Positions 20,865-46,831 of a stretch of 49,362 nt of DNA are shown piece by piece. A program made the translations under genes and the position numbers. Source of the DNA: Raillietiella orientalis (Eukaryota); the NCBI GenBank assembly GCA_036172245.1, contig JAYWIR010000018.1, positions 3,658,001-3,707,362 of the forward strand, written 5' to 3'. The notes under the pieces are model-generated. The model did no database searches, was not told the DNA's origin, and was given only the letters and a program-made list of their open reading frames with translations. Every line of letters begins with the position of its first letter. The first letter of the stretch is position 1.

Positions 20865-21036
20865 CCTAGCAGCTGGTCTTGCTGCACGGGACCACTGCAG
20901 GTCTTTTGCCGCGATCTCCTCGCCGCTTCTTTTTTTTTGTTTCTTCTGGAAAACTTCCTTTTTCCGGGCACACACGAGCACAATGAACTGATTAAGTTGT
21001 CAAGCGCACAATACTTCGAGCCGCGGAGCAAGTTCA

Positions 21037-21048
21037 CCGACTCGGCAG
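21037..21048 (+). repeat. Right TSD of A3 (ccgactcggcag)
   Basis: Direct repeat of 15371-15382. Confidence 0.95.
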
Positions 21049-25279: not shown

Positions 25280-25604
25280 GAACGGCGTAATCCGGTGACC
25301 CCTGCGACCTCTCGCCCACCCATACCCCGTCCCCGTTCGCTCGGTAAAATTTCCGGTGCCCATGCTTTTATCCCCGTGTCTTCCAGAGCGATCCCAAAGA
25401 CCCTTATCCCGTCCTCCTTATTCATTGTTTTTATTTTATTTTGGTTTCTTTGTGTTTCCCGCCCCCCACACCGTTCACAAAACTGTTACTCTGGCCTGCG
25501 TGCCAGCAATATTCTCTTCATTCTTGTTCAGTCGTCGGTTGGGAGTTTGGTTCCCAACTGGTTTATTTTGTATAATTGCTTTTTTTTTTGGTTATGCTAT
25601 ATGG

Positions 25605-25634
25605 AATAAACGCCCCGGCGTGACCGGGTGAGAA
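25605..25634 (+). terminator. C 3' terminus: AATAAA + cccgg/ccggg hairpin
   Basis: aataaa cg c cccgg cgtga ccggg tg agaa; no poly(A). Confidence 0.65.
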
Positions 25635-27280: not shown

Positions 27281-27295
27281 GCTCCGGAATCTCCA
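27281..27295 (+). repeat. Probable target-site spacer between tandem D1 copies (gctccggaatctcca)
   Basis: Repeated at 32834-32848, where it reads in frame as L-R-N-L-Q into E ORF2 DWDLFK; the left edge is uncertain. Confidence 0.72.
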
Positions 27296-27665
27296 TTGAA
27301 ACCCGGGTGCGCCGGGACGTTTATTCTAACGAATAAACTTATGCAATCTGTGACTGGACCAGTAGTCCAGCCACGCCCTGGAAAGATATAGCCTGCCGGG
27401 CTACCGGTGCGCAGACCGGCGCGGTCGACCTCGGCAGCAGAAAGGAGGGGGAACGAAACAAAAAGAAAACAAAAAAATAAACAAAAATCAGGGAGGGAGC
27501 GGGAAGGGATCACAGTCTGCTGGGAGGGCCCGTCATCCTCTGGAGGATGCCGGCAAGCTGTTTCTGCTTGTGTGGTTCCAGATGGGGCCATCGCGTCGCC
27601 ATCCTGAGAAAACGGGCAGCATACACGTTGGCATCCCTGTCGCTGGATCCTCCCGTCGCTTTGCT

Positions 27666-30600
27666 TCATGCCACGACGATCCCGCGTAGGCAGCACAGGG
27701 CTGCAAGCGAGGCCGCTGGAGGTAGGGCGTCACGGACGAAGAGGGGGCGCAAAGCGTCTCTGGGGTTGCCTCCGGGGATCCCCAGGGCTGCGGCAAAGCG
27801 TTCCCACAAGGGACGGAGGGCAACACAATCCACTAACAGGTGGGGGAGGTATTCCCTCTCCCCGCACCTGACACAATTAGGGTTGACACCCCCCCGCGTC
27901 CAGTGGTGTCGGCGGGCGTTGCAAGGAAGCCCCCAATGCAACACCATCAGTGCCGACTGTTGCCACTTCATGGGGAGGGTGCGCGAGTCCATGAGCACCG
28001 GAGGCCATTCGAGATGTTCCTCTGGAACATCCAGTAGCTCTCCCCAGCGCAAAAGTCCATTTGGGGTGGTCCTCGGGGTCGCAGCGTTGGTGAGCTGACC
28101 CGTTCTCCAATCCCCGATCTTCTTTGCCCTGCTGGCGATCTTCACAGTTACCTCCCATTGTGCCGCGACGTCGCTGCCCAGATGTTCCCGTAGGGTAGGC
28201 AGTACCGCAGCAAGGGAGGTTCTTTGTGCCCACGCTCTCCTTCGGGGATTCTCGATGATTTCTCGGAGCGTGCGGCGGGCATGCGGCCCGAACAGAGCTA
28301 TTCGCTCGTGTTGCGAGCTCTGCTCCTGAATCATCGCCCACGTGCGGACGGTTTCCTGCAACCAGGCAGGACCGTTCGCGGGGCGTACGAGGATCCGCGC
28401 CGAGTTGTTCTTCACGAGCTTGGCCGCCCTCCGAAGTTGAAGTCCGCAGTGGCAGATGGGGCTTCGGAGTGCAAAGTAGGACGAGAGTCCCGCATTGCCG
28501 GTGGCCCGCTCGACGAGGAGACGTGCAGGGAGGCACCAAGGGGTGCACCAATTTCCTGCCATAAAGGCAACAACTCGGAACTGGAGCTGTAGCTCCAGCC
28601 GCTCCAACGTCAGGAGGCCCAGACCACCATCCCGACGAAGAGCGCACAAGTCCGAAAGACGGACTCGGGGCCTCACTCTGCCCCAAAGGGCGATCCTCAG
28701 GAGGTCCTTCGTCCTCTTCTTTGACTCCGCTGAGGGGGGGCAAACAAAAAGCAAGGGGCGAAGGAGGGGGGCCGCAAACGCGTTCCACGCCGCGGCCCGT
28801 TCCTGCAGGTAGAACCTGCCGTCCTGGAACGGGCCGATCGCCGCCTGAGCCTTCTGAAGGCAGCCGGACCACGCTTCCGCAGGGGAGTACTCCCCCAACG
28901 GCACACCAAGGTACTTGAAGTACCTCACCGTGGGGATCCCCAAACGGACCCAGTCCTGCGGCCCTGCCCACGCCGCTCCGACTGGCATTACGGACGACTT
29001 CGCCCTGTTCACCGTCAGTCCTGTTCCACGACTCAGCAGGTCGAAGAAGTCCTCGACCGCCGAGGCCGGGGTGGACATAGGCAGCAGCAGCAGAAGATCG
29101 TCCGCGTACGCCGAAACCGCAGGCGTACCGGGGCAATCGCACGGCAGGTGCGCAAGAGTCTCCCTATACGCTCTCAGCACCAATTCGAAAAAGGCGCTAA
29201 AGAGCAGGGGGCTCAGGCTGTCTCCCTGCCGTATGCCGCGTCGCACCGGTACTCCGTGCACGGTTTGCCCGCTGAAAAGAACATTAATGAGCGCGTCGCG
29301 CCAGCTGGAGCGCTGGTAGGCCAACAAAGAGGCCGGGAAGCCCAAGCGTTCCAGAAGCTCCAGCAGGAGATTCTGGTCGACGCTGTCGAATGCTTTACGC
29401 AAGTCGACAGCGACCGCAAGGGCTCCCTTCCCCACCCAACCGTTCCGTCTCCCGCCAACGGACGCACCGGAATTCCGGCTGCTCAATAAGCCCCTTCCTT
29501 GTTGGAGCTCTAACCATGTGGAAGCGTGGAACAGGTTCGCCTCCGTGCTCCGCCCGGGAACAGCATAAGTCTGTTCCGGGCTGATGAAGATGTTGGCGAC
29601 CCGTCCCAGGCGCTCTGCCCACATCTTGGCTATCAACTTGGCGTCCGCATTCACTATTGTGATGGGACGCCAGTTGTTCATGCTCCTTAGGTCTCCTCCC
29701 TTCGGGAGGAGCCGCACCTTTGCTGAACGAAACGAGGTGGGAACGTCACCTGTTTCACGGATCAGCAAGGTGAGTTGCTGTACCAGGGGGGTAAGCTCAG
29801 CCGCGAAAGTTTGGTAAAACTCCGCGGGCAGGCCGTCCTCCCCTGGAGCCTTCCGCCTCTTGAGCTTTCCGATGGCCGAGAGGATCTCGTCCATCGTGAA
29901 AGGCTCGTCGAGGCTTCTTTTCTCCTCCTCCCCGATCGCTGGAGCACCTTCCTGAAGCAGAAGTCGTGAGACGTCCCGCTCCGGAGGCGCCCTGGCGTAC
30001 AGGGAGGAGTAAAATTTTCTTACTATCCCGCGTTTCTGAGCGGGAACCGAGTGCTCCCGGCCCTGGTCGTCCAGCAAGCTGGCCGATCCGGATTGCCAGG
30101 CTTCCCTCTCGGCTCCCGCTCGGTACTCTGCTAACCTGCGCATGTCGGGGGTTCTCGCGTAACGTCGGGCCTGAAGATAGCACCTTTCGTTACGCGGCCC
30201 CTCCCCAAAACCCGCAGGTAGGCGATGCAGGGGGAACTGGTCGCAGAACTCCTGGACCGACCGCTTGAAGCGGTCCCAGTCCTGAAGTGTCTGCATCCAG
30301 AAGCTCCGAATAAACGCGCGGAGGTGCTCCGCCGCGTCGGGAAACTTCAGCCAGTCCCCTGGCAGACGCCACGCTGACGAGGGGGGGCCCTTGTCGCGCG
30401 GACGCACTTCGAACATGATCCGACCATGGTCCGACAGCTCGGATGGTACCTTGCCGCGCCTGCTTACCCGAGAGCATAGGTGCTGATCAAGGTACACGTG
30501 ATCGATGCTGCTTTCCATGGCCGTGTCCCCGGCCAACAAGTTGCGCGTGTTCATTTCTGCGCACAACTCGTTGACGCGGTCGTTCAGTGTATCCGGCGCA

Positions 30601-31091
30601 CCTGAAAGCAGGCGCAGGTTGAAATCACCTGCGATCAGGTGCGCTTTGCGAACTCCTGCATCGGTCAGCCAGTGGCGTCTCAGGGCAAGGTAGAATTCCC
30701 TTCTTGCCTTCGCCTTCAACGCGTTATTTCCGCTAGGAGCGTATAGGTTGGTGACGACCAGGTCGATAGAGTCGGACCAGCTGAGAGTCAGCTGACCGAC
30801 GCGACCTGCGTCATCGAACCGAACGTCCTTTATTGCGGTCTCGATGGCTGGCCGAAGCAGGAAGGCGACACCGCTTGATATCGCGGTGCCGCAACGCCAC
30901 AACAGCCGCCCACCCGAGATCCGTTCGATCTCCCGGGCTTGATCTGCGGAGATCACGTGGATCTCCTGCAGCAGCACCAGGTCGAAGGATGCCAGGGTGG
31001 CGGCCACGTCACGCCTCTTGCCGTCGTCGCTTAGCCCGTTCACGTTCCAACAGGCGATCAGAAGATGACGGCGAGAGGCCGTTCCCGGCAT
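27666..31091 (-). CDS. D1b ORF2 APE-RT-CCHC (1141 aa); TGG>TGA removes the last about 52 aa (natural stop 27510)
   Basis: CWNVNG, QEIH, NLYAP, GDFN, IDH, SDH, DLRKAFD, QGDSLSP, YADD, CVRC..HLLVDC. Homologs continue ..GIV(A/T)AWS.. Confidence 0.93.
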   Translation of the reverse strand: MPGTASRRHLLIACWNVNGLSDDGKRRDVAATLASFDLVLLQEIHVISADQAREIERISGGRLLWRCGTAISSGVAFLLRPAIETAIKDVRFDDAGRVGQLTLSWSDSIDLVVTNLYAPSGNNALKAKARREFYLALRRHWLTDAGVRKAHLIAGDFNLRLLSGAPDTLNDRVNELCAEMNTRNLLAGDTAMESSIDHVYLDQHLCSRVSRRGKVPSELSDHGRIMFEVRPRDKGPPSSAWRLPGDWLKFPDAAEHLRAFIRSFWMQTLQDWDRFKRSVQEFCDQFPLHRLPAGFGEGPRNERCYLQARRYARTPDMRRLAEYRAGAEREAWQSGSASLLDDQGREHSVPAQKRGIVRKFYSSLYARAPPERDVSRLLLQEGAPAIGEEEKRSLDEPFTMDEILSAIGKLKRRKAPGEDGLPAEFYQTFAAELTPLVQQLTLLIRETGDVPTSFRSAKVRLLPKGGDLRSMNNWRPITIVNADAKLIAKMWAERLGRVANIFISPEQTYAVPGRSTEANLFHASTWLELQQGRGLLSSRNSGASVGGRRNGWVGKGALAVAVDLRKAFDSVDQNLLLELLERLGFPASLLAYQRSSWRDALINVLFSGQTVHGVPVRRGIRQGDSLSPLLFSAFFELVLRAYRETLAHLPCDCPGTPAVSAYADDLLLLLPMSTPASAVEDFFDLLSRGTGLTVNRAKSSVMPVGAAWAGPQDWVRLGIPTVRYFKYLGVPLGEYSPAEAWSGCLQKAQAAIGPFQDGRFYLQERAAAWNAFAAPLLRPLLFVCPPSAESKKRTKDLLRIALWGRVRPRVRLSDLCALRRDGGLGLLTLERLELQLQFRVVAFMAGNWCTPWCLPARLLVERATGNAGLSSYFALRSPICHCGLQLRRAAKLVKNNSARILVRPANGPAWLQETVRTWAMIQEQSSQHERIALFGPHARRTLREIIENPRRRAWAQRTSLAAVLPTLREHLGSDVAAQWEVTVKIASRAKKIGDWRTGQLTNAATPRTTPNGLLRWGELLDVPEEHLEWPPVLMDSRTLPMKWQQSALMVLHWGLPCNARRHHWTRGGVNPNCVRCGEREYLPHLLVDCVALRPLWERFAAALGIPGGNPRDALRPLFVRDALPPAASLAALCCLRGIVVA

Positions 31092-32749
31092 TATGGCTGG
31101 GAAAGTGGCGTCGCGGCACCTGCCGCGGGGCAGGTGTACGAAAGGTCCATCGGTACGAGGACCATCGGAACGAGGACGGAGGCCTCTTCAGGCGCCTGGG
31201 GTACCTGTTCGGCCTCCATCCTCACCATCCCCTCCGTGTCCGAGCGTGGAATTCTCTCGGGCGACGGGTCCCGGGAGTTTCCCACGCTCATGGCACCCTC
31301 GCTACCGGAAGCCATCTCTTCCCCTGCGTCGGGGGAGACGATCTTCCGGGGCATTGTGGACTTTCGTCCTGCCTTTTTGCGGGGTGCCGCGGAGATGGAT
31401 GCTGTTTTTCCGGCCTTCACCTCGGGGTCGGAAGTGGCCGACTCCTGAGGGGATGCCGGACGCCTGACGGCCTTCTTGCCAGCCTTGGGGGCAACCGGCT
31501 GCAGCGAGGCAGCCAGCTCCTCCGCGGCGCGCTCGAAGGCGACGTCATCGAGCGTGGGCTCGATGACGGACGCCGCCGCCTCGCTCCCCTCCTTGTTGAC
31601 TTTGTCAACGGAGGGCTGAGCAGGGGCAGCAGCGAGTTCTTTAGCGCCGCATCCGTCGATGGCGGGAATCCGCTCTACAACGACGCAGCAGCTTTTAATT
31701 TTTTCGCGGCGCAGGGCGGTTTCGCTCCGTTTCGCCACGTTCTTTCCCTTCTTATGGGAGTTTTTCTTGGGGTCGACCTTCTGCCACCCTGGCTCTTGAC
31801 CCTCGCCCTCGACCTTTTCGGCGTTTTTCGCCGAAGTCTCGGGGCTGGCCTTCGCCTTGGTGACGGAGGTGACCTCCTTAGCAGCAGCACGAGCTGCCAG
31901 CTTCTTCCTTTTTTTAGCCGCGCGCTTTCTCGCGTTTTTCGCGGACACGACGCGGACTGTGTTTTGGGGGCACACCAGACGGGTGTGCCCCGCTTGTTTG
32001 CAGTGCTGGCACTGCACGCTCGGACACCTCATTTTAAGGTGACCACAGCTGCTGCAGCAGCTGCAAAACTTGAGTTTACCCACGCACCACACGTCAACGG
32101 ATTCACCGTTGACGGTGAGTTTGTGGGGAAACTCACATCCCTCGCGAACCGTCACTCGCGCTGCACCCAGGCCGTCAAGCACCCCGTCGTAATCGACAAA
32201 AGGAGTAGGCTTTCCCCACAGCGCGTGGACAGTTGCAAACTTTTCTAATTCGTTCCGGACGACCTCCTTCGTCATCCGGAACGTGATACCGGTCAGGTGA
32301 ATGATCACCGACCGGTCTTCAGTAATGGGGAGAAGCCTCCGGCTGCCCATACTTATGGGGGTTCGCAGAAGTCTCTGCGCAAGAGTTGCCTCCTTGCAGA
32401 TAACTTCCACAAATTGACCCTTGCTTCTGACGGACATAGCCAGAAGCTCCTCTTTTTGTACACCGAGAGCGCGCATCGCCTGCGAAAAGGCGCGCGCGTT
32501 CTCGGGAGAATATAAACCGCCTACCTTATATAGAAGGGGTGGGTTATACCCCTCCTCCAGGTAAGCGCGCATTTCCGCCATAGCCGCTGGCGTAGGTGCC
32601 GCAGCCACGGCGTTCCAAGCCCTGGGTAGGGCCGGGGGCGCATCCGTGCTGGCGGGAGCCTCCACTGATGCGGGAGCCCCCACCTCCATCTCCTCCGGGG
32701 GCAATGAGGTCATCACTCCCGGATCCTCACCGGTGGTGGTATCAGGCAT
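31091..32749 (-). CDS. D1b ORF1 gag-like protein, 552 aa, intact
   Basis: CSCCSSCGHLKMRC and CQHCKQAGHTRLVC knuckles; the stop overlaps the ORF2 ATG. Confidence 0.9.
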   Translation of the reverse strand: MPDTTTGEDPGVMTSLPPEEMEVGAPASVEAPASTDAPPALPRAWNAVAAAPTPAAMAEMRAYLEEGYNPPLLYKVGGLYSPENARAFSQAMRALGVQKEELLAMSVRSKGQFVEVICKEATLAQRLLRTPISMGSRRLLPITEDRSVIIHLTGITFRMTKEVVRNELEKFATVHALWGKPTPFVDYDGVLDGLGAARVTVREGCEFPHKLTVNGESVDVWCVGKLKFCSCCSSCGHLKMRCPSVQCQHCKQAGHTRLVCPQNTVRVVSAKNARKRAAKKRKKLAARAAAKEVTSVTKAKASPETSAKNAEKVEGEGQEPGWQKVDPKKNSHKKGKNVAKRSETALRREKIKSCCVVVERIPAIDGCGAKELAAAPAQPSVDKVNKEGSEAAASVIEPTLDDVAFERAAEELAASLQPVAPKAGKKAVRRPASPQESATSDPEVKAGKTASISAAPRKKAGRKSTMPRKIVSPDAGEEMASGSEGAMSVGNSRDPSPERIPRSDTEGMVRMEAEQVPQAPEEASVLVPMVLVPMDLSYTCPAAGAATPLSQP

Positions 32750-32833
32750 TGCTGCCTAATCCTCCACCCACACCACGCACAAGCACCAACGGAAATGGAA
32801 CTCAGGAGCAACGAAAAGACACGTCCGCTCGAC

Positions 32834-35800
32834 GCTCCGGAATCTCCAAGACTGGGACCTTTTTAAGGAATCGGTCCGCGAGTTCTGTGAGCAGTTCCCC
32901 CTGGATCGCCTGCCCATCGGATTCGGCGAGGGTGCTCGCAACCATCGGGCCTATTTACAGGCTCGCAGGTACGTGAGAACCCCAAATGTCCGTCGCCTGG
33001 CCGAGAACCGCGCCGGGGCCGAACGCCAGGCCTGGCAATCGGGGTCGGCCAGCTTGCTGGACGACCAGGGCCGGGAATGTTCGTCCCCGGCGTCGGTACG
33101 GCATCTCGGGCGGAGTTATTATTCCTCCCTTTACGCCAGGGCGCCCCCGGATCAAGATGCCTCTCAACTCTTGCTTCCGGATGGTGCCGTGGCAATAGGG
33201 GAGGAGGAGTCGTTAAGCCTCGATGAGCCTTTTACCACCAGCGAAATTTTCGCCGGTATCAAAAGGCTCAAAAGGCGGAAAGCTCCAGGGGAAGACGTCT
33301 TGCCTGCGGAGTTCTATCAGAGCTTCGCGGAAGAGCTGGCACCCCTGCTGCTTCAGCTGACAAGGCTGATCCTAGACGAATTCGATGTTCCCGCCTCGTT
33401 TCGGTCTGCCAGAGTGAGGCTCCTTCCGAAAGGGGCAGACCTTAGGAATTTGAACAACTGGAGTCCGATCACGATTATGAATACGGACGCCAAGTTGGTT
33501 GCCAGGCTATGGGCTTCGCGTGTGGGGCAGGTGGCAGAATCCATAATTAGCCCGGAGCAGAAATATGCTGCCCCCGGGCGAAGTATGGATGCCAACCTCT
33601 TCTTTGCGAGCACATGGATGCACGCGCAGAGGTGTCAAAAGAACGGGAAAGGAAAAATCGGCAACCCCACTTTGGGGCCGCCAGCAGGACAGGGAATGGA
33701 AACTTGGGCGGGGAAGGGGGCCTCAGCGCTCGCAGTCGATCTTCATAAGGCGTTCGACTGTGTTGACCAAGGGCTTTTGTTGAAGCTCCTGGGTCGCATG
33801 GGCTTCTCACCCTCCTCTATTACCTACCTGCGCTCTTGCTGGCGGAATGCGATAATTTCCGTCTCTTACAACAGTCAGAAGGCGCATGGCGTGCCGCTGC
33901 GGCGGGGCATCAGGCAGGGAGATAGACTGAGTTCCCTGCTCTTCAGAACCTACTTTGAGTTGGTGCTGAGAGCCTACAGGGTGACTTTGGCCTCCTTGCC
34001 GAGCTCGTGTCCCGGCACGCCTGCTGTAGCAGCCTATGCCGAAGACCTTCTGCTCCTGTTACCTATGTCCACCCGGGCGAAGGCGGTCAAAGACTTCTTG
34101 GATCTGATCAGCCGTGGGACCGGACTGCAGGTCGAGAGGGCTAAGTCGTCGGTGGAGCCAGTAAGTGCGGCGTGGGCAGGGCAGCAGGACTGGGTCCGTC
34201 TGGGGATCCACACGGCGAGGTGCTTCAAGTACCTTGATGTGCCGTTGGGTGACTACTCCCCTGCGGAGGCGTGCTCCAGCTGTCTTCAAAAAGTTGAGAC
34301 GGCGATCGGCCCGTTCCTGGAAGGCAAGTTTCGCTTGCCGGAACGGGCCGCGGTTTGGAACGCTTTTGCGGTCCCCATCCTCCGCTTCTTGCTTTTTTTT
34401 TGCCCCGCCCCCAGAGAATGCAAAAAGAGGACAAAGGACCTCCTCTGCAGAGCCCTTTGGGGCAATGGGAGGCCCCGAGTCCCTCTGAAGGACTTGTGCG
34501 CTTCGCGTCGGGAAGGCGGCCTTGGCCTCCTGACGCTGGAGCGCGTGGAAATCCAGCTGCGGTGGCGAACCCTCGCCATCGCAGCGGAGATGTGGAGCAC
34601 TTCTTGGTGCGTTCCGGTCCGCCTCCTCGCGAGGCGTTTGTCCCGATGCGAAGGACTCGCGTCGTTTCTTCTGTGCAGTGGCCGGAAGATACGAAAATGC
34701 GGCCTTATGCTCGGACGCATAGCAACCCTGGCAAAGACGAACGGTTGGATGGTTTGTGGCCCCGCCAACTACTCCGCCTGGTTGGAGGAGTCTGCTGGCA
34801 CATGGGCTAAGCAGAACCAGAGTAGTGAAAACAATATGAACTGCCTGCGAATCGGCCCAAACGCCAACCGCACCCTGCGGGAAATTCTGGAATTTCCCCG
34901 GAGTCGCAGGTGGGCGCTGACGACCCCCCTTGCTACGGCGATGCCCTACCTCCTGAGGGCGCTTCAGGATCGCCAGAAGCCGAGGTGGCAAGTCACCTGC
35001 CAGATCGCAGGCAGGGAGAAGATGTTAAGCGGCTGGACCACAGGAGAACTGGCGGACGCCACGAACCCGAGCGTCCAGCCGCGTGGATTACTGAGATGGG
35101 GTGAGCTGCACGCCATCCCTACGGATGTGCTGAAGTGGCCCTTGGTACTGAAGGAATCCAGGATCCTGCCCCTTAAGTGGCAAGAGTCGGCGTTGCTACT
35201 GCTGCACTGGGGTTTACTCTGCAACGCACGCCGCTTCCACTGGACAAGGGGAACTGTGGATCCTGAGTGTGCCAGGTGCGGGGAGCGGGAATCGCTCTCC
35301 CACCTTATTGTGGACTGTGCTGCCATCCGACCCCTCGGGGAACGGTTCGGGGCGACCCTCGGGCTCCCTACGGACAGCACTTTCAGAGACGTTCTTCGGC
35401 CCCTCTTCGTGAAGGACGCACTGCAGCCAGCCGCAGCCATCGCAGCCTTGTGCTGTGTCCGTGGCATCGTGGCGGCATGGAGCGACGCCAATAACGAAGG
35501 AGTGGGTCCACACTCGAGGGATGTCATCCCATACGCCCAACGCTTCATGCGAAGAGCTTTTGGTTGGCCCCAACTGGGGAATATACGGACGGATCTCAAG
35601 GGCTTCCTTCAACGGATGGGCACTCCTCACAGCGTTTAGTGATCCCTTCCGTGCCCACCAACTCCTTTTTGTCTGTTTATTTTTTATTTTTCTTTTTGTT
35701 TTATCCCCATCCCCCTTTGCTACTGAGGAACGCTACGCTGGGATGCGTTTCGGCGTCCTGGCAGGTCCAGTGTATATGGCCGTGAGCGGGGCCTTGTACC

Positions 35801-35850
35801 GCGGATGTAGAGTTTTAACAATAAACGCCCTGGGCGTACCCGGGTGTTAA
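32834..35850 (+). mobile_element. LINE E copy 1 (E1), 3' part downstream of the D1 insertion
   Basis: ORF2 from LQDWD to its stop, D-like 3' UTR, aataaacgccctgggcgtacccgggtgttaa terminus. Confidence 0.9.
32835..35639 (+). pseudogene. E1 ORF2 (RT-CCHC), open but lacking APE; catalytic YADD reads YAED
   Basis: ORF 32973-35639 extends upstream in frame to the D1 junction; DLHKAFD, QGDRLSS, YAED, CARC..HLIVDC. Confidence 0.9.
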
Positions 35851-35867
35851 ACTCTAAGGCCAGTTGG
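35851..35867 (+). repeat. Putative target-site spacer between E1 and E2 (actctaaggccagttgg)
   Basis: Lies between a LINE 3' end and a LINE 5' end, like the A and D1 spacers; it occurs only once, so this is inferred. Confidence 0.45.
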
Positions 35868-35952
35868 AACACGTGTTTTTCCTTCACTCCTCAAAGAGTA
35901 GTAGGAAAGCGCTTTCTTGTGTGTGGTGTTTTGTGTACATCGTCGGTGTCCA

Positions 35953-37638
35953 ATGGCCACGACGCCAAAGGAAACCGCGATGGAGGTGGGAGTGGGGGAG
36001 GCTAGTTCGCCCCCACAGCCTACTGGAGCAGGGGCAGCCGCCCTGGAATCATCTCCGGCCACGCCGAGGACATGGAGCGCAATGGTGGCCGCGCCCAGCG
36101 CAGAAGCCATGACGGAGATGGCCGCATACAAGGCCTCCGGGTACAAGCAATCGCTTGTCTACCAGGTAGGCAACTTGTTCGACGGCCGGACAGCGCGCGC
36201 CTTCAGCAAAGCGTTGAAGGACGCGAATGTTACTGAGAAGGATCTGAACGTCCTCTCCGTCCTCAGCGGCGGGCAGCGGGTCGAGGTGGTCTTCAATGAT
36301 GTCACCCTGGCTCACCGCCTAATCCATGCGCCGCTGAACGTAGACGGCCGCAAGATAATGCCAGTATCAATGGACCGCTCCGTGGTGGTCCACATGACTG
36401 GCATCAACAGCCGCATGACGCGGTCCGCTGTTGGTGAGGAACTGCGAAAGTACGGTGTGGTGCACGCACTCTGGCCGAAACCCTCCATTTTGGACGGTTT
36501 CGTGAGCCTTTTTGGTGAGCAGGCTGCAGCGCAGGTCGCCGTAAGTAAGAATTGTGGGCTTCCCTACAAACTACAGGTGGCGCGAGAAATCGTCGACCTG
36601 TGGTATGTAGGAAAGCCCCGGTATAGCGGGCATTTTGATACCGTGGGACACCTACGTAAAAGGTGTCCCAATATACAATGCCATTTGTGCGGGGAGCGGG
36701 GCCACGTTCGGCGCGTGTGCCCCAAACGCCTCACCCCGGTTCTCCCTGCTGCGAAAAAAGCGCAGGGGAAACGCGCTTCAAAGGTCTCTAGACCTAAAGT
36801 GGAAAAGGGCCAGCACAAGCTGCCAACACCTCAACCTCCGGCGCGTAAGCCGGAGGATAAACCTTCTGAAACGGTGGTAGGCGAAGAAGGATGGCAGCTA
36901 GTAGAGGCCAGAAAGCCAAAGAAACTCCCACCCGCGGAGAGCAAAAAGCGCAAGACGGCCGGTAAGCCGAAAAAACCCGGTCCGCGCTCGAAAACTCTGC
37001 GCGAGTGCACGGTGGCACTGGAACGAATCGTCGTTCCCGAGGTTGCCACCCGGAGCGTCGATCCTCCCCTTGCCGTTTCCGCTGCGCCCGAGGCTCGCGA
37101 CAGCGAACCCTCTGTTTACACAGAGGGTGAGCCGCGCGACATAGCGGCGGTCGAAGCCGCGGACGCCGCGTTCGCGCAGGCGGAGGAGGAGCTCGCGGTC
37201 ACGCTGGCCGAGCGTGAGAACCCCTCGCGCAAGGCCGTGCGAAGGCCGGCTCCGGCGAAGAAGGCCCCCACAGGTGAGTTAGACCTGGGGGCCGGAAGTA
37301 CATCCTCCTCCTCGGAGGCACCACCCAGGAAGTCGGGACTCAAGTCCCAGAAGCCCAGGATGCGCCTCCCCTCCACCAGCGAGGAGGAGAAGACGGAAGC
37401 GGTCGCCAGCGTGGGAAATTCGGAGGAGGAATTCCCACGCTCGGAAGCCGTCGATCCGGCCACCCCCATGGAGGAGGGTGAACAGGTAGGCGCGACCCTA
37501 CCTGTGGGTGACCCGCTCAACGTACAGTTTCCTATGGAGGAGGGGGACCAGGTGCCTTCAGCACCTGACCCTCCTCCTCCACCTAGCGTCCCGCCCCAGC
37601 AGGTGGCGGACGCCGCATCGCAATCTTCCCAGGATTAA
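35953..37638 (+). CDS. E2 ORF1 gag-like protein (about 561 aa), first knuckle degenerate
   Basis: Homologous to D1 ORF1 (AMTEMAAY, DRSVVVH, VHALW); CHLCGERGHVRRVC. Confidence 0.85.
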   Translation: MATTPKETAMEVGVGEASSPPQPTGAGAAALESSPATPRTWSAMVAAPSAEAMTEMAAYKASGYKQSLVYQVGNLFDGRTARAFSKALKDANVTEKDLNVLSVLSGGQRVEVVFNDVTLAHRLIHAPLNVDGRKIMPVSMDRSVVVHMTGINSRMTRSAVGEELRKYGVVHALWPKPSILDGFVSLFGEQAAAQVAVSKNCGLPYKLQVAREIVDLWYVGKPRYSGHFDTVGHLRKRCPNIQCHLCGERGHVRRVCPKRLTPVLPAAKKAQGKRASKVSRPKVEKGQHKLPTPQPPARKPEDKPSETVVGEEGWQLVEARKPKKLPPAESKKRKTAGKPKKPGPRSKTLRECTVALERIVVPEVATRSVDPPLAVSAAPEARDSEPSVYTEGEPRDIAAVEAADAAFAQAEEELAVTLAERENPSRKAVRRPAPAKKAPTGELDLGAGSTSSSSEAPPRKSGLKSQKPRMRLPSTSEEEKTEAVASVGNSEEEFPRSEAVDPATPMEEGEQVGATLPVGDPLNVQFPMEEGDQVPSAPDPPPPPSVPPQQVADAASQSSQD

Positions 37639-38105
37639 CACCTGGGCTCGCCAGTCGACGTCGGATTCGCGCCGTCTGTTGGAATGTCAACGGGCTGCGC
37701 GACGACGGTAACAGGCGAGATACAGCCGACACCCTGCGGGAGATCGACCTGGCCCTGTTCCAGGAGATCCACGTGATCACCGCGGCAGACGTCCAGGAGA
37801 TCGAGACGATCGCGGGGGGTCGACTGTATTGGCAATGCGGCATCCGAAACACCCGCGGGGTCGCGTTCTTCGTGAAGCCGGCCATCGACGCGGCCGTGAA
37901 GGGCGTGCGCTTCGATGACGACTGTCGGGTCGGTCAGCTGACTCTCGGCTGGTCCGACTCGATCGATCTGATCGTCACGAATGTGTACGCCCCAACCGGT
38001 CAAAAGGGATACAGCAACCGTACCAGGCTGCTTGAATCCCTGAAGCGCGACTGGCTGGCGAACACGAGCGTGTGGAAGGCTCACCTGATAGCGGGAGATT
38101 TGAAT
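37638..38105 (+). pseudogene. E2 ORF2 APE N-terminus (ACA at the ATG position), truncated at GDLN
   Basis: (T)PGLASRRRIRAVCWNVNG..FQEIH..TNVYAP..AHLIAGDLN. Confidence 0.85.
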
Positions 38106-38184
38106 CGAGTGCGGACGTGATTTTCTTCGCTCTCGTCTCCGTGCTTTCATCCGCTTCATCTTGGCGTCGTACATTTTGACGACG

Positions 38185-40106
38185 ATGTCGACGCAATTCG
38201 AAGATACTGAAGTTGGAGGAACAGCATCCGGATCTGCAATCGCGGAACCGACGGCTGCCTCCACTTCGTCTTGCTCGCCAGTGGAGAGGAGTTTTGCTGA
38301 CGTTGCTGGCACAGCAGCCGTCAAAAGGAAACCACTCTACGAGTCGGAGTTGCGGCATACGTAGCCCAAGGCTATAGACCTGTTCTCCGGTATAAGGTGA
38401 GTGGTTTTCTTTCAGCGCGCGACGGGAATCAGTTCAACGATGAACTGACCCGTGTTGGCGTGCGGCAGGACGACCTTCTCGCCATTATGTCCGTAAAAGA
38501 CATGAGCTATTTCAAGGTGCGTTGCAAAGACGCTGCACTTGTGCAACGCTTGCTGCGCACCCCGTTGTCGATCCGTGTCCAGAAGGTCTTCCCGGCCGCC
38601 ATGGACGACTCATTTGTGGCGGAGATTTTCGACATCGAGTCGGAAATCTCCGATATTGATATTCGGAATGCGTTGGCGAAATTCGCCACGGTCCATGCGC
38701 TGTGAAGGGTGCGTAGCAACCTCAAGGACTTCCCGTTCATACACAACGGAGTCGCTGGAGTCCGGCTTACAATGCCGGACCGCCGTCTGCTGCCCACCAA
38801 ACTACAGGTGAAAGACACGGTCGTTCACCTGTGGTTGGTGGGCAAAGTAAGAACGTGCGAGCAATGCGGGAAGGAGGGGCATTGTTTGGATAAATGCCCC
38901 TCTGGAAAATGCCGTTATTGCAAACTATCCGGGCACCAATTGAAAAATTGCCCGGATCTTTTGCGAAAAAAGGCAGCCGCGGAGCTTCATTTTAAAAAAC
39001 AAAGCGCGGATAAAAAGAAAAAATCTGCGAAAAACCTGGAGACCCCACGGCAGAAATTCCGAAAAAACGCGAGGCGGAATGTCGCCCCAAAGCAGCAGGA
39101 AACCTCGCACGCGAAGCCCTGCGTGCCCCTTCTCGCGGCAGGGGAGCCGGAAAAGAAAGGGTGCGGGGAATCCGGGGCAATGGTAAGTCCCCCTAGGCGC
39201 AATAGCTGTCCTTCGCAAGCACGCCCGGCTCTTTCGGAGTTCGAGCAACCGGCGGGGACGTCAATGGACAACGGCGGTAAGGACACTTCCAGTACCGTCA
39301 GATTTATTCCTTCACCTCCTGCAGTGGCTGAGAAGCACAAATCGGGTAAGAAGGGTTGTGCCGTGTCGACTTCGAAAGTCGGCAAAAAAAAATCCGCGTC
39401 GCGATCCAACACCGCGAAAGCGGGGAAAAATCTCACGCCGTCGCAATCGGAGAGGAAGCTCTCGACTGGCGCGGATGCCATGCCAACGAAGCGATTAAAA
39501 TCCCTTCCGAAGGCAGCGTCCATGACAAGCGTGTCGAAGCCATCCAAAGTGCTCCCGTCCAAAGACGCGGATGGCTTCAAAGATGGCAATGGAGCACAAT
39601 CTCCATTTACGGCGCCACGCGAAGTGAGGAACCGTAATGAAGTAAAGAAGACTTCAGCAAAGGTCCCTCGTGCAACTGAGCGTGAGCACGCTGAAAACGC
39701 GCGCGCCGGGAAAGCAGCCGTCACCAAAAGCGATGCTCTGGAGAAGGAAAAAGGCAACAGGACAGCTGTCAATCCAGCAGAACCTGTCACTACTTCGCGG
39801 AAGGCCCAAAACCGATCGAACATGCGCCGGTCAGACTCCGAAATGGATGCCGTTCCGATCACCGAGACGAGGACAACTCGTTCGAAAGCGTGTGCGCGCC
39901 GATCAAAAGTAGGCAGCCAGGCAACTGTAGCCGCGAAGCCACGCGAAGTCTCCACGAAACCCGACGGGATTAAGCCTGGCGTGGAGGCATTACATGCATG
40001 CAGCACGACAGAGGACGGTGGCGACCGTCCCCTCCAGCCAATCGTGCTGCTCGCCGTCTGCTCGCCGGATAAAGCGAGCAAAAAGCTGCCACCTTCCCAG
40101 CAGTAA
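38185..40106 (+). pseudogene. B2 ORF1 (frameshift near 38340, stop at 38703)
   Basis: CEQCGKEGHCLDKC and CRYCKLSGHQLKNC knuckles; homologous to B1 and C ORF1. Confidence 0.87.
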
Positions 40107-41824
40107 TGCGGGGAATCGCGTCTTCTCGTCGTCTGTCCGTAACGTGTTGGAACGTGAACGGACTGCAGAACGACGAGAAGAGGCGATTAGTAGCCAACGC
40201 CCTGCGCCCCTTCGAGCTCGCGCTCCTGCAGGAGATTCACGTAATCTCCGACGAGCAGGCAGCCGAAATCGAGGAGCGCGCAGGCGGAACGCTACATTGG
40301 CGGTGCGGCGACGCACACACGTGCTGTGTCGCGTTCCTCGTAAGAGGAAAAATGGCGGAAGCGGTGCGTAGTGTTCGTTTCGATGACGACGGACGGATAG
40401 GCCAGCTTGTCATCAAGTGGTCCGAGTCCATCGATCTCGTCGTAACGAACGTCTACGCGCCGAGTGGTTCTTGCTACCTCGAAGAAAGAGAAGCTTTCTT
40501 TGGTGTGGTGCAGAGCAACTGGCTCAACAACTCCGGCTTCCAAGTGGCGCGCCTCGTCGCTGGGGACTTCAACGTCCGCCTGCTCTCCGACGATTGGAGC
40601 CGCCCGAGGGAGCGCGCGCTGCCCATCGAGATGTGCGCGTCCGTGCACGCCGCCAACTTGATGGTCAGCGAACTTGGATTGGAAAGATCGCTCGCTCACG
40701 TTTTCCTCGATAAAAACCTGCATTCGCGTGTGGGTAGGAGAGGAAGATTTTTGACTAGGCTTTCTGACCACCACAGGTTGGAGTTTGAGATCCTTCCGCC
40801 AGGGAGGGGGCCTCCGTTGCCAAATTGGAGGATGAAGGCAGATTGGCTTAGCAACCGGAGGCTGCGGAGCATCTATGTGGATACCTCCGAGGCTTTGCCA
40901 TTCAAGAACTTGCGGACTGGGACGATCTCAAAAGATCTGTCCGCGAGTTCTGCTGCCAATTTCTTTTGCACCGGCTTCCACGCGGTTTCGGAGAGGGCGT
41001 GGCCAACAGTAGAGACTTTCTGCAGGCCCGAACATTTTCGAGACGCGCGGATGTCGGGCGTCTCGCAGAGTACATGGCGAGGGCCGAGCGCTAGGTCTAG
41101 CAGTCCGGAGCAGCATGCCTGTTGGACTACAAGGGCCAGGAATGTTCGGCCCCAGCCGAAGTACGCCGCGTTGTGAGACGCTACTACTCCTCGCTGTACG
41201 CGGAATCCTCGACGGAGGATATTCTCTCTGAGATACTCCTGTCTCAGGATGCTCGTGTTGTCGGCGAGGAGGAACGCGAACGTCTAAACGAGCCCTTCAC
41301 GGCGGATGAATTTTCGTCCGCCATCGCTGGGCTGAAGAGACGAAAGGCGCCAGGCGAGGATGGGCTCCTTGCAGTGTTTTATCAGTGCTTTGGAGTGGAG
41401 CCTATTCCCTTGATGCTGAAACTCGCGACGCTGATGAGTGAATCCGGGAATGTCCCGGATTCCTTCCGCTCAGCGAAGGTGCGTCTCCTGCCGAAAAGCG
41501 GAGACTTGCGTCAACTTAACCACTGGCGTCCGATCACCTTGATGAACTGGGACGTCAAGTTGTTTTCCAAGCTGTGGGTCGCGCGGTTGGGAAGTATCGC
41601 GGAATCTGTGGTGAGCTCGGAACAAACCTACGCGGTTCCGGGACGATGCATGGAGGCGAACATCCTTTTCGCGCGTACATCGATGCAGCTGCAGGAAGTT
41701 GTGGCGCAGCAAAGCCAGACTGCTGCAAAAGTCACTTCCGCAAGCAAGAAGAACAGGCGCCGACGGCAGGAGGGAACTCCAGGTGCCTTGGCGGTCGCCG
41801 TCGATCTCCCCAAGGCGTTCGATT
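40106..41824 (+). pseudogene. B2 ORF2 APE + RT N-terminal part, frameshift and stops
   Basis: ORFs 40106-41176 and 41122-41862, ending AVDLPKAFD at the junction. Confidence 0.9.
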
Positions 41825-44800
41825 TTCACCCGGAATTCGCCGGGGCGTTTATTGTAAAATAAACATTTACAAAGACGTGCGGTGGCTGGACCATTGCTCC
41901 AGCCACGCACGAAGAAACACAGAGCCTGCCGGGTCACCGGTTCGTAGACCGGGACCGTCCATCACGGCAGCAGGTGGAAGGGGGAAAAACAAAAAAAACA
42001 AAACAAAAAAGAAAAGAAAAGTTGGGAAAGTGAGAGAAGGGATCACAGTTGCTGGTGGGGCCGTTGCATTCTTTGCAGGATGCCGGCAAGCTCCTTCTGT
42101 ATTCCTGGATCCAGGTGGGGCCATCGGGACTCCCTCCTCAGGAACTGGGAGGACGGCTGGATGGCACCCTGGTCGCGTTGTCCTCCCGTAGCCTTGCTCC
42201 AAGCGGTGACGATCCCGCGTGGGCAGCACAAAGCTGCTAACGAGGCCGCTGGCCGAAGGGCGTCAGCAACGAAGAGGGCTTTCAGTGCGTCCCTGGGGTT
42301 ATCGCAGGGTATTCCGATGGCCGCGGCAAAGCGAAACCAAAGGGGCCGAAGGGCAACACAATCCACTAGCAGGTGGGGGAGGGAATCCCGTTCCCCATAC
42401 CTGACGCAATTGGGGTCCACCGCTCCCCAAATCCAGTAATGTCGGCGGGCGTTGCAGGGGAGTCCCCAGTGCTGCAACAGGAGAGCCGACTCCTGCCATT
42501 TTAAGGGGAGGGCGGAAGTGTTCATGAGCACCGGGGGCCACTTCAGATGTTCAATGGGAACATCGAGCAGCGCGCCCCAGCGCAGAAGTCCATTTGGAGG
42601 CGTACTCGAGGTCGCAGCGTCTGTTAACTGGCCCGTCTTCCACTCTCCTATCTTCTTCTCCTTTCCGGAGATTGTTACTGTAACCACCCACTTCGCCGCA
42701 ACATCGCTGTCCAGATCTTCCATCAGGGAGGGCAGCGCAGCAGCGAGGGGGGTGCTTCTTGCCCACGCTCTCTTCTTTGGATCCTCCAGGATCTCGCGGA
42801 GCGTGCAACTTCTGTAACCCCCAAACAGGAACCTTCGTTCCTGTTGAGAGCGCTGCATGCCTTACTGTCCCCACGTTCGAACGGTTTACTGCAACCAGGC
42901 ACTACCGTTCAACGGGCGACAGGTGAGCAATCCGGGGTTTTTCCGATACAGCGCAGCCCATCTCCGTAGCTGGAGTCCTCATCGGTTGACGCGGCGACGG
43001 AGTGCAAGAAACGACGTCAGTCCCGTCTTGCCGTTGGCTTGCTGGAGGAGACGTGCAGGGACGCACCAACAGGTGCACCACAACTCTGGAACGAGTGCCG
43101 ACAAGCGGAACTGGAGCTGAAGCTCCAGCCGCTCCAGCGTCAGGATTCCCAGACCACCATCCCGACGAGGAGCGCACAAGTCCTTCAAGCGGTCTCGGGC
43201 CCTACCGTTGCCCCAAAGGGCGACACGGAGGAGGTCCTTTGTATACTTTTTAATTCTCTCTGTGGGGGGGCGAACAAAAAGCAGGAAACGGAGGAGAGGA
43301 GCCGCGAACGTGTTCCAAACCGTGGCCCGTTCAGGCAGGAAGAACCTGCCGCCTCGGAACGGGCTGATCGCCGTCTCTACTTTTTGGAGGCAGCCGGACC
43401 ACGCTTCCGCATGGGAGTAGTCCCCCAACGGCACCCCAAGGTACTTGGAGTAAATCACCGTGGGGATCCCCAAACGGACATAGTCCTGCTGCCCTGCCCA
43501 CGCCGCATCAACTGGCATCACGGACGACTTCGCCCTGTTCACCGTAAGACCGGTTCCCCGATGCAGCAGGTCGAAGAACTCCTCGGCCGCCGCAGCCGGG
43601 GTGGACATAGGAAGCAGCAGCAGAAGGTCGTCCGCGTATGCTGAAACGGCCGGCGTACCGGCACAGTCGTGCGGCAGGTGCGCCAGATTTCCCCTGTACG
43701 CTCTCAGTAACCACTCAAAGTAGGTACTGAAGAGCAAGGGGCTCAGGCTGTCTCCCTGCCGGATCCCACGCCGCACCGGCACGCCGTGCACGGTATGCCC
43801 GCTGAAAGTAACATTGATGAGCGCGTCGGGCCAGCAGGAGCGCAGATAGGTTACTAATAAGGCCGGGAAGCCAAAGCGTTCCAGAAGCTCCAGAAGGAGA
43901 TTCTGGTCGACGCAATCGAATGCTTTCCGCAAGTCAATTGCGACCGAAAGGGCTCCCTCCCCCACCCGACCATCCAAGCCCTTGCCGGCGCACGCACCGG
44001 AATTCCGGTTGCGCACCAAGCTTCTTTCTTGTCGGAGATCTACCCAGGTGCAAGCGTGGAACAGGTTCGCCTCCATGCTTCGCCCGGGAACAGCATATGT
44101 CTGTTCCGGGCTGACGAAGATGTTGGCAACCCGTCCCAGACGCTCTGCCTAAACCTTTGCTAGCAACTTGGCGTCCGGATTCACTAGTGTGATGGGACGC
44201 CAGTTGTTTATGCTCCTCAGATCTCCTCCCGTAGGGAGGAGCCGCACCTTTGCCGAACGAAACGAGACGGGAACGTCGCATGTTTCGCGTATCAGCAAGG
44301 TGAGTTGCTGTACCAGGTGGGTAAGCTCTGCCGCGAAGGTTTGATAAAACTCCGCGGGCAGGCCGGCCTCCCCTGGAGCCTTTCGCCTCTTGAGCTTTCC
44401 GATGGCCGAGAGTATCTCGTCCATCGTGAAAGGCTCGTCGAGGGTATTTCTCTGCTCCTCCCCGATCGCTGGAGCGCCTTCCGGAAGCAGGAGTCGTGAG
44501 ACATTCCTCTCCGGAGGTGCCCTGGCATACTGGGAGGAGTAGTAACTCCGCAGCAGGCCGCGGATTTTGGCAGGTGCCGAGTGCTCCTGGCCCTGATCGT
44601 CCAGCAAGCTGGCCGATCCGGACTGCCAGGCTTGCCTCTCGGCTCCCGCTTTGTATTCCGCCAGCCTGCGGATGTCGGGGGTCCTGGCGTAACGACGGGC
44701 CTGCAGGTAGGCTCGTTCGTTACGGACCCCGGTCCCAATAACCGTAGGTAGGCGCTGGAGAGGGAACTGGTCGCAGAACTCCTGTACCGACCGCTTGAAG

Positions 44801-45470
44801 CGGTCACAATCCTGGAGTGTCCGCAGTCTGAAGCTCCGTATGAACGTGCGGAGATGTTCCGCCGCGTCCAAGAACTACAGCCAGTCCCCTGGGAGACGCC
44901 ACGCTGACGAGGGGGGCCCCTGTCGCGCGGATGGATCTCGAGGACTAGCAAGCGATGGTCGGACAGCTCGCACGGTAACTTGCCGCGCCTGCCCACGCTA
45001 GGGCACCCGTGCTCGTCAAGAAACACGTGGTCAATGCTTTCTTCCATCCCCGGTGCATTGGCCAACAAATTACAGGTGTGCACCGCCATGCACACCTCGT
45101 TGACCAGGTCACGCTCGGGATTCTGCCCATCTGGTTTCAGGCGAACGTTCAAATCGCCTGCAACCAGATGGGCATTCCGCATGCCTGCTTCGGTCAGCCA
45201 GTATCGCCGGAGGGCAAGGAAAAACTCTTTCCTCGCCCTCCTGTTCATCAGGTCCTTGCCGCTCGGTGCGTACACGTTCGTGACAATCAGATCGATCGAG
45301 TCGGACCACCTGAGAGTCAGCTGGCCGACACGACCGTTATCGTCGAACCGCACGCCCCGAGCCGCGGCCTCGACGGCTGGCCGAAGCAGGTAGGCGACAC
45401 CGCAACTTTTCGCTCTCTCACACCTGTACCATAGCCGCCCTCCGGAGATCGGTTCGATCTCCTGCGCTCG
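41825..45470 (-). mobile_element. LINE D2 copy b (D2b), ORF2 and 3' UTR, cut at its 5' side by C2
   Basis: 3' terminus aataaacgccccggcgaattccgggtgaaaa at 41823-41853(-); ORF2 and UTR are related to D1. Confidence 0.9.
42043..45470 (-). pseudogene. D2b ORF2 (APE-RT-CCHC), frameshifts and stops
   Basis: ORFs 44292-45482, 44149-44871, 42979-44076 and 42043-42858. Confidence 0.9.
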
Positions 45471-46830
45471 TACAGTGCACACGTGTTTCCGCGTCTATCC
45501 GCGCCAACGATCGGGCAACTTTGTGCCTGCGTTTTTGCTCGCACTTGTGTGTTCCTGTGCAATCTGCCAAGTAGCATAGTGCAACATGGCCAGTACACAG
45601 GATAGTGTGGAGGAGCAAGCCACTGGATGCACTTCAGCTGCACTTGAAGTGGCCGCATCCTCCGTAATGGTTTCCTCGCCCCCGGTGAGGAGTTACGCCG
45701 TCGTTACCTCCCAAAGACCAGGACCCTGCGATGCGGAGTTCCAGGCATATGTGTCATCAGGATACATGCCTGCACTCCGTTATAAGGTCAGTGGGCCACT
45801 TAACGGGAGAATCGGTCGTGAGCTCAATGATGAGCTCGTCCGGATAGGCGTTCGCGAGGAGGAACTCCTTGCCATAATGCCTGCTGGCAGGATGGAATAT
45901 ACGAAGATTCGGTGCAAGAACGCAGCACTTGTGCAGCGCCTTCTCCGTACGCCGTTGACCATCAAAGGCAAGGAAGTCCTACCTACCGCGATGGACGACT
46001 CTTTTGTCGTTCAATTGTGCGACATCGAACCGGAAATCTCCGACCGCGATGTCGTAAGTGTGCTGGCGAAGTTCGCCACCGTGCACGCTCTGTGGAGGAG
46101 GCCAAATCCTCTAAAGGATTTCCCCTCTGTCCACATTGGACAAGCCTCCGCGAGGATCACCGTCGCGAACAGGCGTGTTGTGCCTGAGCAGCTGCAGGTG
46201 AACGGCACGGTCGTTCACCTGTGGTTCATAGGCCAGACTCGCGCGTGCGAGCAGTGCGGCAAGGATGGGCACCGAATTAAAGAGTGCCCCTCTCCAAGAT
46301 GCCGCTATTGCAAAGATTCCGGGCACGAAATCAAGAAGTGCCCGGTACTTGCAAGAAAAAGAGCCGCAGCGGAAATTCGTCGGGTTCAAGAGACCACTGC
46401 ACGAAAAGCCGCAGCGGCAAATAAAAAACGTCGTCCGCAAAAACTCGAAAAAAACCACGAGCGATCCGCGGATAAAAAGAAAGCATCCCCGCCCGCAACG
46501 CCCCGAAAGGGGAAAGTCACGGCGGGGAAGCCAATTAAAAAGGGGCGCGAGGGTTTGACGCGTGCCGTGCCTTCCCTCTCTGCCGAACTCGCAGGCACCT
46601 TTCCGAACCTGGAACCAGGAAATCTCCGTAACACCCTGGAGGGAAAGGTAGGAAAACAGGAAGATCGCAACAGTGCGAAGACTTCTTGCCCCGTTCCGTT
46701 GTCCCTTCCGAGTTCCGGACAGCCCCACTGCAGCGCAGGCCCCACTGCAAAGGCTACGAAAGCCGTAAAAAGCAGCGTCGCAACGAGCAAAAGCACGCTG
46801 CATGCAGTCGCCCCATCGCCGACTCGGCAG
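45471..46830 (+). mobile_element. LINE C copy 2 (C2), 5' UTR + ORF1 up to the A insertion
   Basis: Near-identical to 14023-15382. Confidence 0.92.
45586..46830 (+). pseudogene. C2 ORF1, N-terminal part, interrupted by A4
   Basis: ORF 45586-46875 reads through into the antisense A 3' UTR. Confidence 0.9.
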
Positions 46831-46831
46831 G

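Follow-up and report, generated by a model that had tools for sequence, protein, structure and literature searches.

Insertion of two LINE sublineages at the GD(F/L)N codons of sister-LINE endonucleases in a nested retrotransposon locus of Raillietiella orientalis

When LINEs accumulate inside one another, does a newcomer choose where in an older element it lands? Target choice in APE-type LINEs is mostly either loose, as in L1 (TTTT/AA), or exact, as in Tx1 and R1 in multicopy genes. A stretch of 49,362 bp from R. orientalis (assembly GCA_036172245.1, contig JAYWIR010000018.1, positions 3,658,001 to 3,707,362 of the forward strand; hereafter the window) raises the question in concrete form, as two elements of one family, B, begin at or just beyond the codons for a single motif, GD(F/L)N, in the APE of two other LINEs.

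A window composed of LINEs

The window (GC 0.54-0.62) is made up wholly of non-LTR retrotransposons of one broad kind according to a tblastn map, and neither Rfam families nor tRNAs were found within its 49,362 bp. We built the element map (Table 1) from self-comparison, six-frame ORFs, tblastn with reference ORFs and inspection of every joint. The elements are APE-type (L1-group) non-LTR retrotransposons, with an ORF2 that carries APE and reverse transcriptase (RT) domains together with a weak zf-RVT match (Pfam), an ORF1 of the CCHC type, and target duplications. The ORF2 of C1 matches Exo_endo_phos (2.7e-15) and RVT_1 (4.9e-23); Exo_endo_phos is also present in B2's own ORF2 and in E2 (37587-38120), the latter giving a tblastn match to C1 ORF2 aa 25-190. 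A zf-CCHC match was found in three of the four ORF1 queries scanned (E2, B3 and A3; 21.1-21.6 bits against a curated cut-off of 20.8), the fourth, a partial B2 ORF1 query (38706-40103), matching no Pfam family. The closest solved structures for ORF2 are human L1 ORF2p (E 7.6e-49) and the L1 endonuclease (L1-EN), and a protein atlas search returned LINE-like clusters.

Table 1. Elements, host fragments and hairpins in the window (positions count from the first base of the window)
Feature	Positions	Strand	Content
X2	3396 to ~1	-	ORF2 stop at ~position 7-9
A1	3394-7621	+	
A2	7622-12346	+	
B1	13690-12347	-	full 5' end, 5'UTR and ORF1 (~419 codons); truncated by A2 3' end
D2a	14019-13691	-	host APE fragment, ORF2 aa ~86-196, terminating GDFNVCL (GDFN codons 13710-13699)
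B3	14020-15380	+	5'UTR and ORF1, 5' portion of a third B-type element
A3	21036-15381	-	full-length A-family LINE, antisense inside B3/X1
X1 (element)	21047-25635	+	remaining ORF1, ORF2 and 3'UTR of B3's element; adjoins C2 antisense
C2	27295-25636	-	5'UTR, ORF1 and ORF2 aa 1-~88
C1	32848-27296	-	full length, intact
F	32849-35851	+	
E2	35852-38105	+	host LINE: 5'UTR, ORF1 and ORF2 aa 1-190, GDLN codons last (38094-38105)
B2	38106-41822	+	full 5' end, 5'UTR, ORF1 and ORF2 to aa ~601; truncated by D1 3' end
D1	45485-41823	-	ORF2 aa ~86-end and 3'UTR of host H, second duplication copy
B3'	from ~45470	+	
A4	up to window end	-	
D1 empty site	45124-45174	-	intact AHLVAGDLNVRLKPDG codons, 13+7 bp hairpin, GDLNV codons in loop
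C1 homologous hairpin	30596-30644	-	around GDFNL, 10+7 bp, -18.6 kcal/mol, z -4.6

Sixteen fragments make up the nest, nine of which keep a full 5' end. The 3' ends of the X1 element, C1, F and D1 are free of any poly(A) or simple-repeat tail; the C, D, F and B types instead end in a conserved terminus, AATAAACGCCCCGGCG..CCGGGTG plus 2-4 A, with a small CCCGG/CCGGG hairpin (25605-25635, 27296-27330, 35820-35851 and 41823-41860). In the X1 element this terminus closes as ...CCGGGTGAGAAA, last base 25635, and family A ends in GGGGAAAACT. The D1 3' end lies antisense in the reverse transcriptase of B2, directly after the codons for ..AVDLPKAFD (41812-41823), a highly conserved motif that we take to be RT motif A.

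Family B belongs to the same kind of element as its hosts. Its 5' terminus reads CGAGT, an optional G, then CGGACGTGATTT, and a 5'UTR start of the form CGAG(T)CGGACGTG...GCTCC is common to the B type, C1, C2, E2 and B3, each beside an unrelated flank; the terminus is homologous, more distantly, to that of family A as well. Because the same terminus occurs in several elements with unrelated flanks, the B 5' termini are true full-length element ends. B2 runs through ORF1 into its own APE and RT (40073-41822), and B is a complete sister LINE rather than a separate kind of element. Pairwise ORF1 identities of about 66-69% among B1, B2 and B3 (about 67-68% for B1 and B2), and of 71-78% among the ORF2 parts of X2, B2 and the X1 element, indicate three sublineages; X2 is probably the continuation of B1 after a deletion tied to A1/A2. 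A metagenome scan for the B 5' terminus returned 114 loci, none with blastn or tblastn similarity to the window; all are therefore chance 17-mers.

Junctions at the GD(F/L)N codons

At the first of the two junctions the APE frame of E2 reads ...KAHLIAGDLN and stops with its GDLN codons, GGAGATTTGAAT; B2 opens with CGAGTGCGGACGTGATTTT at the very next base, 0 nt after the N codon, in sense orientation. We compared public runs X1-X3 with window positions 25250-45249 at a likeness of 85. Public runs X2 and X3 held next to nothing of this region except a low-complexity stretch (35665-35715), and public run X1 yielded a contig of 3755 nt (131 differences, 96.5% identical) that spans 38077-41822 and includes 29 nt of E2. 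The E2|B2 junction is not an assembly artefact, since this contig crosses the same joint. At the second junction D2a ends in ...NAHLAAGDFNVCL; the first letters of B1 are TCATA, then CGAGTCGGACGTGATTT (found exactly at 13685-13669), and they come 8 nt after the N codon of GDFN, again in sense. The two 5' junctions lie 8 nt apart in APE coordinates in hosts that are 75% identical (D2a against E2), and the target sequences of B1 and B2 differ in their arms (GCAGGCGATTTTAAC vs GCGGGAGATTTGAAT). The initial annotation had B2 directly after the GDLN of E2, B1 just after the GDFN of D2a, both in sense within the host APE, and two distinct B lineages within about 10 nt of one motif in different hosts; the junctions, and the identities of lineages and hosts given above, agree with it.

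A segmental duplication dates the arrival of B1. Positions 13691-17919 and 45139-49360 are 94% identical and share a piece of host APE, the 5' end of B3 head-to-head with it and part of an A element, which we interpret as a locus that was duplicated when nesting had already begun. In the second copy nothing interrupts D1 at the B1 site (GDLNVRLKPDG... continues to its 3' end at 41823), and the similarity of the first copy to D1 stops at 13691, where B1 begins. Because the paralog D1 runs through the site and the copies are 94% identical, B1 is a genuine insertion later than the duplication; the insertions of B3 and A3, both nested in the shared stretch, came earlier.

This history bears on the idea that no endonuclease-driven insertion took place at all, and that reverse transcriptase, on reaching the 5' end of B RNA, instead jumped to the accessible hairpin loop in the RNA of another LINE, or that B cDNA was captured at a break in the palindrome, long palindromes being known to be fragile. 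No further part of E2 is seen within the window, and the window holds three head-to-tail joints in which a 3' end abuts a full 5' end (A1>A2 at 7621/7622, C1>C2 at 27296/27295 and F>E2 at 35851/35852) and which would fit end-to-end template jumps. These joints fit equally well, however, with repeated hits on a target rebuilt by its own duplication. The partner upstream of B1 was genomic DNA that already existed: since D2a shares the nested B3 and A3 with its B1-less paralog D1, a template-switch chimera onto host RNA is excluded for B1, which thus departs from chimeric retrocopies of the U6-L1 type, where no earlier copy of the host exists. The contig described below speaks against switching or capture as well, since the host appears to resume in it with a duplication of 16 nt, as staggered nicks would leave. 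For B2 this origin survives as an alternative that we judge improbable.

Both B elements lose their 3' ends to the limits of the window or to later insertions: B2 is cut at 41822 by D1, and the 3'UTR of X2 lies just outside. The one 3' junction at the GD(F/L)N site comes from another contig of public run X1 (depth 5.5), in which a B-type 3' end (last base 25635) is followed by ten letters, AATTTTAACG, and then by 21 nt. The tool placed the 21 nt at 45153-45173 plus, the antisense strand of a near-palindrome in which strand placement is ambiguous. Joined to 9 of the 10 letters, the 21 nt give a 30-mer that fits D1 in sense (45154-45125) with 3 mismatches, where no such match is expected by chance, and the contig's ATTTTAACG also stands unchanged in D2a (13706-13698). 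Most simply, this would be a B-type 3' end after which host APE resumes at (GD)FN in sense, a strand assignment that we infer from a short contig: the 10 and 21 nt add up to 31 nt, the word size, the contig stops at a branch of the assembly graph, and its B-type side is known by the end coordinate 25635 only. It may be the 3' junction of B1 itself or come from another D-like host.

If the contig belongs to B1, the target duplication would be the 16 nt ATTTTAACGTTTGCCT (13706-13691), with 2 mismatches to the contig, and by analogy the same first nick in E2 would give B2 an 8-nt duplication, ATTTGAAT. Duplications of 16 and 8 nt from one first nick would account for the 8-nt offset between the two 5' junctions. 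The initial annotation had expected a B 3' junction to resume host APE near GDFN and had suggested that duplication length might explain the 5' offset; the contig, resuming in sense at ATTTTAACG, accords with the former, and the two candidate lengths fit the latter. A contig of the same run also spans 25284-25664 (the 3' end of the X1 element into C2), and other joints of the run, such as 25662 with 37950, could be read no further than as paralog cross-mapping. The sample of insertions at GD(F/L)N thus consists of two 5' junctions and one 3' junction, representing at most three events and perhaps two.

Other landing sites and the part of chance

A third B-type element behaves differently. B3 and the X1 element are the two halves of one full-length element split by A3, which is flanked by an exact 10-bp repeat, GCCGAGTCGG (15371-15380 and 21037-21046); only with one copy of this 10-mer kept does the ORF1 frame of B3 extend into the open frame 20992-21708, where it reaches an ORF1 stop that overlaps the ORF2 start. 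Once reunited, the element is seen to interrupt a host APE in antisense orientation at ...ADQAREI|ERISGG, which is near aa 88 of ORF2 and away from GDFN. Its flanks are C2, ending in ..GCCCGGGAGAT (~aa 88), and D, beginning GCGCAGGAGAT CGAAC.. (~aa 86), and we read their 11-bp overlap, with 2-3 mismatches, as the likely target duplication. C2 probably represents the 5' half of host H, which B3/X1 interrupts. The two host halves differ in their likeness to C1 (94-97% for C2 and 73-78% for D), which suggests either that the C2 half was homogenised with the adjacent C1 by gene conversion or that the host is a mosaic. With an exact 10 bp at A3 and 11 bp at B3/X1, ordinary target-primed reverse transcription with duplications of about 10 bp operates in the window.

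B3/X1 shows that family B is not always in sense, contrary to the statement on its orientation in the initial annotation, and it limits the targeting of GDFN proposed there: for this sublineage the 3' flank is C2 at about aa 88, the very outcome that was to count against the proposal, and strict targeting is not supported. With one of its three elements antisense elsewhere in an APE, the B group lacks strict site specificity. Nor are insertions into LINEs of this window confined to GDFN, as public run X1 contains further antisense LINE 3' ends elsewhere, one in the APE after ..IAGG (joint 37819-27301) and one in ORF2 near aa 326 (joint 35846-30208).

Could family B nevertheless be a strictly sequence-specific LINE of the Tx1/R1/R2 kind, with the GD(F/L)N site of other LINEs as its sole target? 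Two sublineages entered two hosts in the same orientation, possibly from the same first nick, and transposons figure among the listed targets of target-specific non-LTR elements (PMC4640811). The antisense B3/X1, with its clear 11-bp duplication at aa ~88, argues against such specificity, as do 5' junctions that lie 8 nt apart in targets with different arms and a 3' junction known from a single case. We consider strict specificity highly improbable, the least probable of the explanations weighed here.

Chance deserves more weight. In a nest composed of LINEs alone every insertion necessarily lands in a LINE, and two insertions free to fall anywhere might end up 8 nt from one another on homologous coordinates. 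We modelled six independent LINE-interior insertions in the window (B1, B2, B3/X1, H(D1) into B2, A3 into B3 and A2 into B1) on a 5.5-kb target with two strands. Some pair within 11 nt and in the same orientation is expected among the six with P = 0.031, a value to be read in light of the B pair having been noticed post hoc. Coincidence also draws support from the composition of the window, which is LINE throughout and free of RNA genes and tRNAs, from the third B-type element at another site and on the other strand, and from the want of a nick-site consensus: the nicked-strand contexts of the four readable insertions show no clear one. A general preference for A/T-rich sites was considered and dropped, the other readable targets being GC-rich; A/T runs of at least 6 are rare (about 2.5 per kb). 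A GGAGATT microhomology linking the GD codons to the C-type 5' end was likewise dropped as a cause, given that the 5' ends of B1 and B3 are without this stretch.

A second coincidence among the same six events weighs on the other side. The 3' ends of A2 and A3 adjoin the same homologous base of the B1 and B3 ORF1, both antisense, in an ungapped alignment whose last 60 columns are 62% identical. These were separate events, because B1 arrived after the duplication that already carried A3 and because the similarity values differ (90.6% for A2 and A3, 69% for the B1 and B3 ORF1). Two disjoint coincident pairs, the B pair and A2/A3, have P = 1.25e-4 under the model, and family A looks target-selective. 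The three head-to-tail joints lean in this direction too, insofar as a target duplication can restore a preferred site, although template jumps from end to end would yield them as well. Also contrary to chance are the shared orientation and full length of B1 and B2, the independence of their lineages and hosts, the further LINE end at the same codons in the contig of public run X1, and the position of the site within the fourth strongest hairpin of the window. On balance we regard coincidence as unlikely, though the most serious of the rival accounts.

Several features of the A family lie beside this argument. The repeat GCCGAGTCGG together with the next C forms an 11-nt palindrome, and the same 10-mer is also found between the A1 3' end and the body of A2 (7621-7631). 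A2 is without about 930 bp found in A1 (12079-12092 vs 6434-7366). Its 3' part may derive from another A copy joined by recombination, which would explain why no matching repeat flanks the A2 3' end (12346/12347).

A hairpin at the landing site and the place of family B among LINEs

The codons at which B1 and B2 landed belong to a long inverted repeat in host lineages seen intact. In the D1 empty site the hairpin covers the codons for AHLVAGD-LNV-RLKPDG with one mismatch and holds GATTTGAACG in its loop; folded as DNA it reaches -24.5 kcal/mol (z -7.1; 0 of 200 shuffles as good) and ranks fourth among 9861 sliding 60-nt windows. In the homologous hairpin of C1, three base pairs have both partners replaced relative to D1. 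What is left in D2a is the left arm, the loop and 6 of the 7 inner right-arm bases; in E2 a left arm like that of C1 survives, on the strength of which we assume a hairpin in this host of B2, the position of the right arm lying beyond B2. The APE codons of the B type itself, GGGGACTTCAAC (GGGGAC TTC AAC GTC), form a short stem only, B-type sequences do not form the outer stem, and the hairpin is a feature of C1 and D1 only. A covariation test on five APE sequences gave no significant signal: the double-change count was matched or exceeded in 142 of 500 shuffles, the covariation score in 42 of 500.

These GC-rich elements are full of strong hairpins (about 100 windows of -15 kcal/mol or lower over the 49 kb), several of which recur in different families at homologous positions; for these reasons the association between insertion and hairpin is a lead and not a result. 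Recurrent hairpins of -17 to -24 kcal/mol (DNA) occur across families at homologous coding positions, for example in ORF1 at ..KLQVxGxxVxLW.. (38786-38845 in B2, 46166-46225 in B3', 26521-26580 in C2 and 32071-32130 in C1) and at 29856/44386 and 28786/34296/43306. LINE coding sequences here seem unusually rich in conserved palindromes.

We favour, as somewhat more probable than not, an account in which ordinary target-primed reverse transcription used a regional hot spot, the A/T-rich loop of the GD(F/L)N palindrome. B1 and B2 would be full-length copies of two L1-like sublineages, each of which entered an older sister LINE in the orientation of the host. The point of entry would be a hot spot rather than a strictly defined site, the A/T-rich GATTT(T/G)AA(C/T) that encodes D-F/L-N, which in the host lineages seen intact (D1 and C1) forms the loop of a long GC-rich inverted repeat. 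To judge from the one 3' junction, the antisense strand would be nicked at the left edge of ATTT.., after which B RNA would be reverse-transcribed to its 5' end, a step to which the family 5' terminus on both copies attests. The sense strand would then be cut 16 nt downstream in H, as the contig suggests, and 8 nt downstream in E2, by analogy, and loss of the host endonuclease would be a by-product. The nuclease of the element might prefer the boundary between loop and stem, or the palindrome might merely make the DNA accessible. An A/T-rich loop within a GC-rich palindrome is a likelier cause of the landing than the catalytic role of GDFN, for which nothing in the junction data shows any importance.

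How does such a hot spot compare with known systems? Target-specific non-LTR elements come chiefly from early-branching clades and from two clades that bear an APE, Tx1 and R1, and their targets include transposons (PMC4640811). Elements of the Tx1 and R1 clades, such as Keno in U2 genes, resemble family B in using multicopy targets, sometimes standing in tandem at the target (PMC4640811). They differ from it in using one exact nucleotide position, whereas the B 5' junctions are 8 nt apart and the third copy lies elsewhere, and in their targets, unlike which that of family B is the coding sequence of a sister LINE. Among the elements of this group, Tx1L sits in the DNA transposon Tx1D. In the strict class all copies occupy one position in one orientation; of the three B-type elements, two lie in sense at GD(F/L)N and one lies antisense at aa ~88, so the case in the window works like target-selective LINEs but is not a member of the strict class.

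The self-nesting clusters of Zepp and ZeppL (green algae, L1 clade), as far as partial descriptions of them go, offer a likeness at the level of the array, and no kinship is implied: new copies lie inside existing copies in a region of LINEs only, and the window is 100% LINE, nested, with three head-to-tail joints. Zepp arrays consist mostly of 3' ends after 5' truncation, in contrast to the many full 5' ends and several diverged families of the window, and a motif-level landing site is not reported in those descriptions, whereas landing points in the window repeat at homologous bases. The human L1 endonuclease has the same fold, and not only sequence but also local DNA structure guides its choice of target (PMC1950540). 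The window elements have no poly(A) tail, unlike human L1, and end in ...CCGGGTG(A/T)nAAA after a small hairpin. The L1 endonuclease has the consensus TTTT/AA. The nick that we infer in the window, AAAAT^CGCC, contrasts with the TTTT^AA of L1, and by an L1-like rule the TTTTAA of GDFN would lead to antisense insertions, whereas B1 and B2 lie in sense.

A wider reading would make the LINE families a hierarchy of parasites on one another, each with a favoured landing point in the coding sequence of another family; we offer it as speculation that is more probably wrong than right. If it were true, the B1 and B2 lineages would land in the conserved palindrome loop at GD(F/L)N of C/D/E-type APE, family A would use a single base close to where B-type ORF1 ends, tandem head-to-tail joints would arise as target duplications rebuild the site, and hairpins in coding sequence would serve as landing pads. 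The B type would escape by synonymous changes (GAC TTC vs GAT TTT) that remove loop and arms.

A keyword search of open-access texts found no description of a repeated landing point in sister-LINE coding sequence tied to a hairpin, and such a landing point would, if true, be new. Should the pattern be due to chance, the window would still provide a well-resolved history of nested LINEs with datable events around a segmental duplication. Should the preference be real, a LINE that favours a structured, conserved stretch of sister-LINE coding sequence would be a middle case between loose and exact target choice, with a refuge gained at no expense to the cell and competitors disabled. It would also build LINE-only regions, like those that serve as centromeres in some algae, and would connect a DNA hairpin with L1-type endonuclease nicking in a way that can be tested.
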